In this document: positions 3,840 to 39,609 of the stretch, piece by piece
Layout of the letters: each line of letters opens with the position of its first letter
Position numbering within the stretch: position 1 is the stretch's first letter
DNA from: Vicugna vicugna
Lineage: Eukaryota
Length of the DNA: 64,000 nucleotides
NCBI GenBank assembly: GCA_013265495.1
Contig: MU058037.1
Location: 1,861,498-1,925,497 of the forward strand
Direction of reading: 5' to 3'
Notes under the pieces: generated by a model
What the model saw: only the letters and a program-made list of their open reading frames with translations
Database searches by the model: none
Told to the model about the DNA's origin: nothing
Position numbers and translations under genes: made by a program

Positions 3840-3883
3840 TATAATATTACATGGTAACTAATATAATATTACATGGTAACTAA
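3840..3883. repeat. Perfect 22-bp tandem duplication
   Basis: TATAATATTACATGGTAACTAA x2. Confidence 0.95.
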
Positions 3884-4106
3884 TTATCTTCACATATAAT
3901 TTTTGAAGATATAATTTATTGGTCTTCTACTATGAGGAACTGAGTCTGATTCTGGTGCTTAATGTATAATATCTGTAATTGTCTCAACAACTTGGCAAGA
4001 TGATCTTTTTGCTCCATTTTGTATATGAGAAAAATAAGGTCAACTAGTTAGTAAGAGATAGAGATAGGACTTGAACCCATAGCTATTCCACTAAATGCTG
4101 TTTTCT

Positions 4107-5361: not shown

Positions 5362-6010
5362 TTTTCTCTTTTTAAATTAATTTTTTATTGTGGTAAAATA
5401 AACATAACAAAATTGTTATGATCATTTTAGCCAGTTTAAGTGTATTTTCTTCACAATGTTGTACAAACATCACCACTATCCATTTCCAGAAATTTTCCAT
5501 TATTCCAAACAGAAACTCTGCACAGACAGACCTATTTTATTACACTTCATTTTATTGTGGTTTGCAGATACTGTGTTTTTTACAAATTGAAGATTTGTAG
5601 CAACCATGTGTCAAGCAAGTCTTATTGGTGCCATTTTTCTAATAGCATTACTTTTTAATTAAGGTATGTACTTTTTTGGATATAATGCTATTGCACACTT
5701 AAAAGACTAGTGAAACATGACTTTTATATGCACTGGAAAACCAAAACATTATTGTGACTCACCTTATTGTGATATTTGCTTTATTGTGTGGTCTGGAAAT
5801 GAGCCTGTAATATCTTCGAGGTATGCCCATACTCATTAAACAATAACTCCCCACTCCTTCCTCCTCCCAGCCTCTTATAACCTTTACTCTACTTTCTGTC
5901 TCTATAAATTTGCCTACTCTAGGTACCTTTGTCCTTTTGTGACTAGCTTCTTTCACTTAGCACTTTTTAAAGGTTCGTCCATGTGGTAGCATGTGTCAGA
6001 AAACCATTCC
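5362..6010 (-). mobile_element. L1MB-like 3' end nested in older L1
   Basis: T-rich tail then ttattgtggtaaaata...caccactatccatttccagaa...; TSD TAAGCAT(A/T)CTT at 5351-5361 and 6011-6021. Confidence 0.8.
5523..5829. mobile_element. Internally deleted Tigger1 (non-autonomous, Tigger1a-like)
   Basis: Both ends resemble the CAGGCATACCTC TIR (cagacagacct.../...gaggtatgccca); inserted at the TA of the L1 motif gaaactctgTAcccattaaac. Confidence 0.85.
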
Positions 6011-6226
6011 TAAGCATTCTTGTACACATCTTTTGGTGAACATGTATTCATTTCTGTTGGGTTCTACCTAGGAATGGGATTGCTGGGTCATCTAGTCCAA
6101 CATTTTTCCAAGGCTAGTGTGATCTGCTACACTTCTCCAGACTTTCTCTCCCTTATCCCTTGTTTTTGTCCCTTGTGTTCCGTCCACAATCATGGCAATG
6201 TTGCTGCAATATGAAAAATTCTTGCT

Positions 6227-6275
6227 ATTACTCCATCTCCTCTTCAACCTGTTGTTGAAGAGGAGATGGAGTAAT
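6227..6275. repeat. Perfect 22-bp inverted repeat with 5-nt loop
   Basis: ATTACTCCATCTCCTCTTCAAC (6227-6248) / CTGTT / GTTGAAGAGGAGATGGAGTAAT (6254-6275). Confidence 0.97.
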
Positions 6276-6278
6276 GTA

Positions 6279-6314
6279 TCCAGAGAAAGCCTACCAGACT
6301 ACTTCAATGGAGTC
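6279..6314 (+). repeat. Exact 36-bp dispersed copy of 7110-7145
   Basis: TCCAGAGAAAGCCTACCAGACTACTTCAATGGAGTC is identical at both positions. Confidence 0.97.
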
Positions 6315-6349
6315 CAACAACATTGTTGTTGTTGCTGTCAATATTCTTC

Positions 6350-6600
6350 TTCATATATACTCAGTTGAACAAAAAATAATAAAGTGAACGCTGTACACCC
6401 ATTACCCAGTTCAAGAAATAGAACGTTAGTAGTGTCTAGGAAACCCCTATATGCTCCTCCCTAATCACATCCTCCTCCTTCCCCTCACAGAGATAACTAC
6501 TATCTTGAATTTTGTGCTAGTTATTCCCTCACTTTTCTCTATATTTTGCCACCTATATATCCCCAAACAATCTATTGTTTGGTTTCACCTATTTTTGAAC
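6350..6600 (-). mobile_element. L1ME-like 3' fragment
   Basis: acccagttcaagaaatagaacgtt...cagagataactactatcttgaattttgtg. Confidence 0.6.
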
Positions 6601-6602
6601 AA

Positions 6603-6853
6603 GACAGGGGAGCTGGAGTATTTCTAGTTTTGTACCTGTCAGTCATTACTTAAGGACTGCCCCTAAAGGACATCAGTTTCCAGGCTCTGCCAGTAGTCGG
6701 TGGACATAGGCAAAGAGGAGGGGCTCTGGCAACCTAAGGGCAGACCTCAGACCAAGAGATGCAGGTGCTGGCTGTTGGGATGGAAAGCACACTGGGGGTC
6801 AATGTGCATAAAAATGGTAAAGGAATGAAGTGGATATAGGTGGAGTCTGCTCT
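6603..6853 (-). mobile_element. LTR33-like ERVL LTR fragment
   Basis: ggagctggagtattt...gtcagtcatt...agagatgcaggtgctggctgttgg...aaatggtaaagg...gatataggtgg. Confidence 0.65.
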
Positions 6854-6934
6854 GGCTATTGACTATAATAGCTTCCTAAGTGAACCTTCCTGCATTGGTT
6901 TCTTTCCCATACAATCCATTTTCCAGTCACAATT

Positions 6935-7290
6935 ACTCATTCATTCAAATACTCTACAAATGTTTATTGAATACTTATGACATGCCAGGCATACTCTCTG
7001 CCTGGTGGATCTTATAGTTTAGCAGGGTAGACAGACTCTAGAGAAACAATTACAAGTGGGATCACAGTATTAAATAGGAAGTAAGATCAGGGTATTATGG
7101 GAACATATGTCCAGAGAAAGCCTACCAGACTACTTCAATGGAGTCTTGGAGGAGTTGTCTAAAAAAAAAGAGCAAAAGAAGGGGACAGAATGGGTGGGGG
7201 GAGGGATGAGGGTGAAAGGAGGGCACTCGAGGCAGAGGGGACCTTCTGTGCCAAATTTCAGAGTTGAAAGAGAGGATTTCAAAGAACAGA
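6935..7290 (-). mobile_element. L2 3' fragment
   Basis: cattcattcaa...aaatgtttattgaatacttatgacatgccaggc (L2 3' end), then tattatgggaaca...gaggcagagggga. Confidence 0.7.
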
Positions 7291-8648
7291 AAGTACTAAG
7301 TTCAAAGCCATGGTTGTCTGGAGGAACACTTCTCAAAAATTATGTCACAAATAAAACATTATGAATTGGTTTGTGGCTAAAATAAGGTTCGAGAAATAAT
7401 TGGGAAGTTTGGGCCTTCAGAGATCTGAATTAGGAGAAGGGAACAGATGCATCAACTTGAGCAATGTTTGAGAAACTTCGTTGCCTGTTGAATTAGAAAA
7501 AGCATAATCAATGGAACTAGCACTCTGTATTTATTGGGCTGATTTTTGTCCATATTTAAATCTTTATGTTTTGGCCGGTACCTGAAATGTGGCCTGTCCA
7601 AAAGCAGGAAAGAAGAATTACTGAATTAATTATTTAGGGCTCTGGTCACGATTCTAATCATTTCTAATCATTTCTTGATGTGAAACCACAACTTCTTCCT
7701 CTGTTAGAATCATCATTATCTGTCATTGAATGCACCTGGCTTTCAACATGAATGTATGGATTTCACATATTTTATGTGCAAATCAGGGATGGAGGCTCAT
7801 GTAAATTTTAATATACTAAATTTCATGTCAAAATAAATATTCTTGCTTAAATTTCAAATGCACATCTGTGTATGATCTCAGTAGCAACCCAAAGTTCCTC
7901 ACTCCTTTGACCCAGTCAGTTTGGACAATCCCCAGCTCTGGGTAAACCTCCTTATCCATTTTTTCACCTTCTCAAAACTCCCAAGTATTGTTTGAGAAAG
8001 TCATGTAACCCTAATGATTAATTATATTTGAAATTACTTTTATATGATCTCAGGTGAAAGCTATTTAATTCCTTTGTTTTGATTTATTCCCTTCCTTATA
8101 CTCATTTTTCCAACCCCACCTTTTCACTTCCTCAAGCTCCCCCCTCCATTACTTTGCCACTACCTATCTCAGCCTCTCTGACAAAAAAAATTATATATAT
8201 ATGTATGTATATCTTTTCTTCCTTTATTAAAGGAAAAAGTGTCCTTTTCCTTTCTAAAAGTTACCTTTCTCTCCTCTTGAATACTAGACTCCTTCTTTTC
8301 CAGGACCCCAACCCTCTTCCTTTTATCTGCAAGTCTCACATCCCATTGGCCTTTTTCTCTCAGATGTTCTCATTGCTTTCATCCTTCCAAAGCACCTTCT
8401 CAACCTCCAGGTCTCCCGAGTGGCTATCTATCAACCTTCCTTCACCTCCATAGTTATTACTCTAAGAACAGTCTACCTTTGTTTTCTCTGTGTCCACTTC
8501 CAATTCACTTTTTAACCCACTTGAAACTCGTGGCACTCAAACTTGGTTCCCCTATCAATACTTCCCATCAGCACTTGCTGCCTCTGTAGCCTAATTTCCT
8601 GCTCATTCTTCAACCCATTTCACTTCTCTGCTGAAATAGGACCTACGA

Positions 8649-14477: not shown

Positions 14478-14616
14478 GGGGAGGGTATAGCTCAGTGGTA
14501 GAGCACATGACTAGCATGCATGAGGTCCTGGGTTCAATCTCCAGTACCTCCTCTAAAAAAAAATAAATAAGTTACCCCCCCAAAAAACAAAGAATTGAAA
14601 AGAGAAAATAAATAAA
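14478..14616 (+). mobile_element. Camelid tRNA-derived SINE (Vic-1 type)
   Basis: GGGGAGGGTATAGCTCAGTGGTAGAGC...GGTTCAATCTCCAGTACCTCC, C-run, A-rich tail; exact 17-bp TSD TAAAAGATGGCATGCAG at 14461-14477 and 14617-14633. Confidence 0.95.
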
Positions 14617-20551: not shown

Positions 20552-21053
20552 TCTTTAAAAATTATTTATTTATTATCTGTTTATTTTTTAGAGAAGTCTG
20601 TGCCTTTATTGGCCAAGCTAGTCAAGAGGGATGAAGCTGGAGGAGTGGGTGGCCCTGATGCCCGGGTGGCTTGTGCTTCAGCAGCTTGTAGGTGATTGAG
20701 AACTCACCCACGTAGTGGCCAATCATGATTTCCACCTGGTTGAAGGTCTTGCAGTTGTAGACGCCCACCGTCTCGGACAGGATGATTATTTCCCACAGGT
20801 GCATTTCACAACCTCAGGCTTCTCCGTGGGCGGTGCCTCCATCTTGGTCTTGCTCAGACACTTCAGCAGTGAGTGCTCCTTCCTGCTGGCCCAACTTAGC
20901 TACTGCCAGGGCCGGGTGCTATACAACTGCATCAGCTGCTTATAGGAGTTGCCCAGCTGCTGGTCGACGTCCACAAGTGAGGTAGGTGAACTCGTGGAAG
21001 ATCTGTTTGTTTTGCTCCACTTCTACCACCTTGTCAGTTTTGAGGAAAGGTTA
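20552..21053 (-). pseudogene. RPS15: Processed pseudogene of 40S ribosomal protein S15
   Basis: Minus-strand peptides [76 protein letters not shown] match RPS15; no introns; ATG>GTG at 21029-21027; stop at 20620-20618; AATAAA at 20610-20605; A-rich tail; TSD GTAGTCCTATTTTTA at 20537-20551 and 21054-21068; in-frame TAG and several frameshifts. Confidence 0.96.
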
Positions 21054-38910: not shown

Positions 38911-38970
38911 TATTTGTTGTCTTTTTGATGATAGCCATTCTATTTGTTGTCTTTTTGATGATAGCCATTC
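38911..38970. repeat. Perfect 30-bp tandem duplication inside L1
   Basis: TATTTGTTGTCTTTTTGATGATAGCCATTC x2. Confidence 0.97.
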
Positions 38971-39609
38971 TGACAGGTATGAGGTGATATTTCATTGTGG
39001 GTTTGATTTGCATTTCCCTGATGACTAGTGATGTTGAGCAGCTTTTCATGTGCCTGTTGGCCATCTGTGTCTTCTTTGGAACAATGTCTATTCAGGTATT
39101 CTGCCCACTTTTAAATCAGGTTGTTTGGGGTTTTTTGATGTTGAGTTGTATGAGTTCTTTGTATATTTTGAATTTTAACTTCTTACCAGGTATATTGTTT
39201 GCAAATATCTTCTCCCATTCAGTGGGTGGCCTCTCTGTTTTGTTGACAGTTTTCTTCGCTGTAAAAAAAGCTTCTTAGTTTGATGTAGTCCCATTTGTTT
39301 ATTTTTGCTTTTGTTTCCCTTGCTTGAGGAGATGTATGCAAGAAAATTTGGCTAAGACCAATGTCAAAGAGCATACTGACTGTTTTCTTTTAAGAGTTTT
39401 ATGGTTTCAGGTCTTACTTTTGAAATATTTAATCCATTTTGAATTTATTTTTGTATATGGTATGCTGGAGTAGTCTTGTTTGATTCTTTTGCATGTAGCT
39501 ATCCAGTTTGCCCAACATATTTAGTGAAGAAGCTGTCTTTTCCCCATTGTATGTTCTTGCATCCTTTGTCATAGATTAATTGCCCATATAAGTGTGGGTC
39601 CATTTCTAG

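Follow-up and report, generated by a model that had tools for sequence, protein, structure and literature searches.

Multi-template germline insertions are a described class of mutation, with dozens of complex cases per human genome (PMC8421209). In the portions of that study drawn on here, Osia et al. (2021) examine two people, find 33 such complex insertions in one and 26 in the other, and figure a human germline event in which a reverse copy and then forward copies come from three templates; the search distance of their MMBSearch is 100 bp. The excerpted text of Khodaverdian et al. (2017; PMC5728401) presents snap-back on inverted primer repeats and in-trans priming as steps of SD-MMEJ, and that of van Schendel et al. 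(2016; PMC5068794) attributes repeated priming, slips, and errors to POLQ, with about 85% of worm inserts priming within 10 bp of the break and snap-back forming a minor class. Germline break-associated insertions and structural variants within a resection range of about 2 kb are described in the available part of PMC7615360, and the short-range switches in the sections used from Walker et al. (2021; PMC7954356) are limited to 100 nt.

The locus considered here lies in a 64,000-nucleotide stretch of Vicugna vicugna DNA (the window), in which positions 6258 to 6322 are almost certainly a templated-insertion scar of some kind (Table 1). The copies, their orientation, and the distance between them can be read off directly. 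The initial annotation had described three adjoining patches, a fold-back, a 36-bp copy, and an 8-nt inverted copy, and we find all three where it placed them. Its reading of the whole as a germline multi-template insertion with a fold-back is likewise supported, for an insertion of about 65 nt of the type made by microhomology-primed template switching.

Table 1. Parts of the scar, its flanks, and its donor, in window coordinates.
Feature	Position	Strand	Remarks
Hairpin left arm	6227..6248	+	Exact inverted repeat; 0 differences in contig 5 of run X13
Left arm, putative roles of its parts	6227-6244; 6245-6248	+	Template of patch 1; partner of the 4-bp snap-back primer
Hairpin loop, 5 nt	6249..6253	+	
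TTG tract, left piece of the interrupted tract	6250..6257	+	Last 4 nt (6254-6257) are the putative snap-back primer
Patch 1, 18-nt inverted copy of 6227-6244 (fold-back synthesis)	6258..6275	+	Beyond 30 of 30 window shuffles
Linker, 3 nt, of uncertain origin	6276..6278	+	Either untemplated or carried on from donor 7107-7110, given a 2-nt slip or an indel at a later time
Patch 2, exact 36-nt direct copy of 7110-7145	6279..6314	+	36/36 identical; spacing 831
Patch 3, 8 nt, reverse complement of the TTG tract	6315..6322	+	Registers 6250-6257, 6324-6331, or 6327-6334
TTG tract, right piece of the interrupted tract	6323..6334	+	Presumed original flank
Putative donor of patch 2	7107..7145	+	7110-7145 exact; 7107-7110 possible priming site

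The exactness of the two longer patches sets them apart from chance. By direct comparison, 6254-6275 is the exact reverse complement of 6227-6248, and the resulting 22-bp stem is the sole perfect hairpin of at least 11 bp with a loop of at most 10 nt in the real 64-kb window; the longest perfect stem with such a loop reached 9 to 13 bp in 30 dinucleotide shuffles of the window. The same number of shuffles gave longest exact direct repeats within 2 kb of 13 to 16 bp, and the 36-bp repeat is, dinucleotide runs aside, the longest exact direct repeat of the window. Because the inner four base pairs of the stem (6254-6257) belong to the TTG tract, only 18 nt of the hairpin (6258-6275) need be new, and the minimal new sequence is 6258-6322, or 65 nt. 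The left arm presumably belongs to the original, ancestral flank. Patch 3 is weaker, as its reverse complement was found within 70 bp in 24 of 2,000 shuffled flank pairs. It had been paired with 6324-6331, and that reverse complementarity is real; however, patch 3 matches 6250-6257 and 6327-6334 equally well, and the register that folds is 6315-6322 with 6327-6334 (4-nt loop), not 6324-6331 (1-nt loop). Part of patch 3 may be original flank.

The initial annotation held that ATGT precedes both copies of the 36-mer, which proves to be out of register: the recipient ATGT (6274-6277) ends two bases before the second letter of the copy, whereas the donor ATGT (7107-7110) overlaps the first base of the copy, and matching them needs a 2-nt indel. 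No junction-spanning template for the linker region rose above chance (988 and 940 of 1,000 shuffles), nor did any junction-spanning match at the presumed position of the closing junction. There, a direct template for patch 3 at 6094-6102 (9 nt, which would give a 4-nt microhomology) and a 10-nt inverted match at 5453-5462 were rejected as chance-level, being equaled in 103 and 88 of 1,000 shuffles, respectively. A 7-nt word near the end of patch 1 (6267-6273) occurs also at 6307-6313 and at the donor end, 7138-7144; this shared word could have favored the choice of, or the exit from, donor 7110-7145.

We regard 7110-7145 as the likely donor on grounds of parsimony, the only signs of rearrangement being at 6258-6322, and from its setting in a stretch, 6930-7330, that appears to resemble the 3' end of an L2 element. 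In comparisons of the donor with such an element, the best window tile aligned across both donor borders but only about 3 standard deviations above the tile mean, this tile having been chosen with the donor; an unbiased test gave p = 0.23, and a profile built from three other copies gave no match at the donor.

The insert is also observed directly in independent sequencing runs. Positions 6130-6450, sampled as 28 words, were used as the query, and the 24 rows listed are ranked towards carriers. The query is carried by 20 of the 24 rows, two of which are marked as a possible source; the 18 non-source rows represent 16 samples, 9 studies, and four organism labels (A to D), 15 of them holding 27 of the 28 words and three holding 26. 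Since 89 of the 291 31-mers in the query depend on the insert, an empty genome is expected to miss about 8 to 9 words, and the probability of at most two insert-dependent words among 28 is 0.002. The four rows with a share of 0.00 are small runs (34 to 68 million letters) and constitute no evidence of absence.

Contigs, not raw reads, were aligned for one run per organism label (4 of the 18 runs: X13 for A, X7 for B, X12 for C, and X14 for D). A contig of X13 spans 6121-6314, that is, the hairpin and the copy, with 0 differences. X7 yields a stand-alone 36-base contig that is exactly 6279-6314, at a depth of 30.9 versus 18 in the flank, as expected when a sequence occurs twice without a mismatch and its copies collapse into one node of the assembly graph; a further X7 contig, 6285-7139, has 0 differences. 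The right junction is covered in all four aligned runs, patch 3 being free of listed differences. The left part (6090-6284) has no listed cover in X7, X12, and X14, a gap that the record filter makes uninformative. For X12 and X14 the left junction is supported indirectly. X13 is fully covered, and its sole difference within the query, at 6424, costs two words; X12 and X14 share this difference and are likewise two words short, so that the words of the hairpin are likely present in them too. Neither an empty allele nor a joint that skips the insert appears in the four aligned runs, which come from the carrier-ranked list, and there is no partial haplotype among these four or, by word share, among the 18 non-source rows. 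Outgroup orthologs were sought through host DNA in metagenomes, where 33 loci had an exact 18-base match; the matches extended over only 18 to 32 bases, and none of the 33 loci was orthologous.

Several smaller irregularities accompany these alignments. X12 and X14 have one unlisted difference each near a contig end, and their contigs break off within the donor copy, X12 at 7130 and X14 at 7124; these ends in 7110-7130 may reflect a drop in coverage or sequence variation at the donor or close to it. A loose end at 6121 in X13, whose loose letters are absent from the window and end in GATC, was considered as a nearby structural variant and rejected because the contigs stop exactly at GATC sites (6121-6124 and 7008-7011), a pattern that a restriction-ligation library would give. 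In all four aligned runs, further loose ends at 6763-6796 mark a small dispersed repeat piece, 33 to 34 bases long, with a likeness of about 90% to two or three loci elsewhere.

Four substitutions located 100 to 490 bp from the insert (6424, 6530, 6553, and 6809) separate three filled haplotypes, namely, the window type (X7), one with two changes (X14), and one with four (X12 and X13). These haplotypes cross the species labels: X13 (A) and X12 (C) share all four changes, and X7 (B) is identical to the window (A). The divergence of 4 in 727 bases, or 0.55% (95% range, 0.15 to 1.4%), implies that the filled haplotypes coalesce about 1.8 Myr ago (0.5 to 4.7) at a rate of 1.5e-9 per site per year, which is near the 7e-9 per 5-year generation given in the part of PMC7331169 used here. 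The 0 differences in 54 copied bases set an upper bound on age of about 18 Myr, or roughly 11 to 28 Myr at 1 to 2.5e-9 per year. These ages must be read with the caveats that diploid contigs can be mosaics, that recombination or introgression can move alleles between labels, and that X12 and X14 have the unlisted differences and early contig ends noted above. The insertion had been thought recent and possibly polymorphic. In contrast, it is carried under four organism labels and by three haplotypes that differ by up to 4 of 727 bases; because these haplotypes are up to about 0.5% apart, the scar is neither private nor very recent. It is likely about 0.5 to 5 Myr old, or older, and is probably common or fixed in this species group, although run counts cannot establish fixation, since the run list is ranked towards carriers.

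The explanation toward which we lean is that one two-ended germline break was repaired by microhomology-primed template switching (polymerase-theta-type end joining), with three switches, and left a neutral scar. The break would have fallen in or at the short TTG tract, and resection would have left a 3' single strand at each end. The left end would then have folded back on a 4-bp primer (6254-6257 on 6245-6248) and been extended by 18 nt, after which the unwound end would have annealed, via a microhomology of about 2 nt, at a site about 830 bp away on the right fragment, whose bottom strand was exposed, and 36 to 39 nt would have been copied there in direct orientation. Patch 3 would stem from another short fold-back, for which the TTG tract served as template and the right end is the simplest place, and the ends may then have been joined with 0 to 1 nt of visible microhomology. 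Afterwards the scar would have risen to high frequency, most likely by drift. In such a scheme a single event, with this order of steps, direction of copying, and enzyme, would account for all patches, and every template would be a single strand exposed by resection of one break here, the inverted patches being copied from the end's own top strand and the direct patch from the bottom strand of the opposite fragment.

Folding predictions are consistent with parts of this scheme. The strand ending at 6257 is predicted to fold to a terminal 4-bp hairpin in 72% of the ensemble, and its 3' base is paired with a predicted P of 0.83, rank 7 of 998 top-strand ends. The argument from this primer is to some extent circular, because every perfect stem has complementary bases in its innermost 4 bp. 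When 6320-6322 are taken as original flank, the right end gains a 3-bp primer and is paired with P = 0.62, compared with 0.06 without them. Patch 2 fits a left 3' end copying the resected right fragment, given its direct orientation and downstream donor. The first switch has 4 bp of microhomology and the second about 2 bp, if a 2-nt indel is allowed for; the last two have 0 to 1 bp, there being none at the exit from patch 2. Against the theta-type reading, two of the four junctions thus have no microhomology or only that expected by chance.

The same product is expected of one event at a stalled or collapsed fork (FoSTeS/MMBIR, with a replicative or translesion polymerase), in which the strand looped back, jumped 0.8 kb within the fork, and returned; we consider this rather unlikely, while giving it real weight. 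Judging by the sections of PMC5068794 cited above, POLQ would seldom copy as much as 36 to 39 nt or reach a template at 831 bp, and that distance counts against the theta-type reading as well. In the part of PMC8421209 at hand, the fork route is held responsible for complex germline MMB-TIs, which draw on up to five templates, and longer complex inserts are treated as likely distinct from TMEJ, a further point against the theta-type reading. However, a direct downstream donor needs a single-stranded template ahead of the fork or on the other arm, and two-ended resection would supply all of the templates more simply; sequence alone cannot separate a fork from a two-ended break. It is improbable that the scar accumulated stepwise, through two or three separate mutations favored by the fragility of the TTG tract or of the hairpin, with the stem formed first and a later break patched from 7110-7145, as the patches abut without intervening original sequence, all are exact, and no partial haplotype was seen among the four aligned runs or, by word share, the 18 non-source rows. 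Perfect hairpins can be break-prone, which counts in favor of such a succession. Patch 1 alone also fits a short-range template switch as outlined in the parts used of PMC7954356 and PMC10710096.

An RNA-templated or retrotransposon patch (TSIP class 1 or 2) would treat the 8-nt direct repeat that brackets the insert (6250-6257 and 6324-6331) as a target-site duplication, and class 2 TSIPs are patches at breaks according to the available text of PMC5110952. We consider this origin extremely unlikely. The repeat exceeds the 5 bp set as the minimum for a class 1 duplication but belongs to the TTG microsatellite; the insert and its junctions (6250-6334) contain neither a poly(A) nor the TTTT/A site of class 1, and DNA templates in cis are indicated by the fold-back patches and by the short distance, 831 bp, to the donor. 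An assembly or library chimera was among the findings that, according to the initial annotation, would overturn its reading. In its favor, errors of library preparation and gap filling typically take the form of fold-backs and short distant copies, and contigs alone were aligned. The chance of a chimera is nevertheless negligible: the insert is present in 18 non-source rows from 9 studies, X13 has 0 differences over the hairpin and copy, X7 shows the repeat node, and the right junction recurs in all four aligned runs. The chimera reading is in substance refuted by the independent runs and the contig cover.

The initial annotation had proposed a miRNA-like stem, an idea that we find weak. The hairpin is predicted to be stable (z about -9 to -10), with 22 perfect pairs, or 25 to 26 with wobble pairs on the + strand, around a 5-nt loop, and further enclosing pairs lie beyond multiloops. 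In the sections used of Monttinen et al. (2023; PMC10710096), a pri-miRNA stem is about 35 bp with a loop of at least 10 nt, miRNA-like template-switch stems have 30 to 55 bases, and at least 18 miRNA genes derive from over 6,000 suitable hairpins. At 22 to 26 bp and 5 nt, the present stem and loop fall short of pri-miRNA geometry, and no Rfam family matched the hairpin at gathering score, the best match, which rested on structure only, scoring 30.2 bits where the cut-off is 76. Nothing in the sequence appears to indicate a function of the scar. One could imagine a fixed scar of one meiotic-type break whose two ends folded back as hairpins and were then linked by a patch copied from resected DNA 0.8 kb away, hence a fossil of kilobase resection feeding theta-type end joining, with a stem transcribed and processed into a lineage-specific small RNA that aided its spread across four related species; we think this combination very unlikely.

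The surroundings are AT-rich (GC, 0.32 to 0.46), repeat-laden DNA of mammalian type. At gathering score, Rfam finds only two tRNA-like stretches in the window, 2486-2557 and 14481-14552. They belong to copies (2486-2600 and 14481-14590) that are 80% alike and have A-rich tails after SINE-like heads, and that may be camelid SINEs, a label not found in the text of PMC8605555 consulted. No host gene or exon for the insert was found in the 150 of 533 stop-free frames of at least 45 amino acids scanned with Pfam, which gave one match above cut-off, to Ribosomal_S19 (E = 2e-11) at 20625-20813. This piece lies in 20590-20860 on the minus strand, inside L1-like sequence 14 kb from the scar, and is followed by a polyadenylation signal and an A-rich tail; the region is likely a processed pseudogene of a small-subunit ribosomal protein, presumably RPS15. 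Exact two-copy tandem duplications of 22 and 30 bp at 3840-3884 and 38911-38971 are young-looking small insertions elsewhere in the window.

We conclude that the scar is most likely an old and ordinary product of DNA-break repair, and not a gene. It is of a kind already known, and it is older and more widespread than first supposed. It is well suited to teaching, and typing an outgroup would make it a homoplasy-free presence/absence marker for the species group. Because published scans search only about 100 bp around an insert, they miss donors at 831 bp, and a genome-wide count of mid-range donors in fixed differences could test template distance against germline resection length.

Among the known systems, the locus resembles a class 2 TSIP, as portrayed in the part of Onozawa and Aplan (2016; PMC5110952) consulted, in being a germline patch copied from elsewhere, with the donor retained and no poly(A); it differs in its local donor (0.8 kb), its composite structure with fold-backs, and the lack of any sign of an RNA step. 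The four-point model of short-range template switching, in the portions of PMC7954356 and PMC10710096 used here, accommodates patch 1 as a one-step reverse-complement copy that forms a perfect hairpin. One switch explains patch 1 only, since no fewer than three are required for the entire insert, together with a direct-orientation template farther than 100 nt away. A literature search on template-switch insertions in camelids gave no report of this locus among the matches listed, which is weak evidence that none has been published.

Shared with SD-MMEJ and TMEJ products, in the passages of the cited studies drawn on, are snap-back on a short inverted primer, here a predicted terminal hairpin of 4 bp whose primer is presumably ancestral, in-trans priming, repeated priming and dissociation, and small slips at the junctions. 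The typical templates of those products lie within tens of bases, as do those of patches 1 and 3 but not that of patch 2 (831 bp), and their inserts are shorter; the closing microhomology is not evident at the present locus. Complex MMB-TIs (class CM), as characterized in the part of PMC8421209 available, share with the scar an insert of at least 25 bp, several templates (here 18, 36, and 8 nt from three templates), a reverse and then a forward copy, with the inverted template 6227-6244 adjoining the junction, a germline origin, and presence in unrelated individuals (here 16 non-source samples in 9 studies, with all four aligned runs in agreement). The differences are that one template lies 831 bp away, beyond the 100 bp of MMBSearch, and that the host is a non-human mammal in which the insertion, with no reference allele for comparison, is apparently near fixation across four organism labels. 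From its sequence, the scar may be assigned provisionally to a product that works like a complex MMB-TI or SD-MMEJ insertion, template distance being the one typical TMEJ feature from which it departs.
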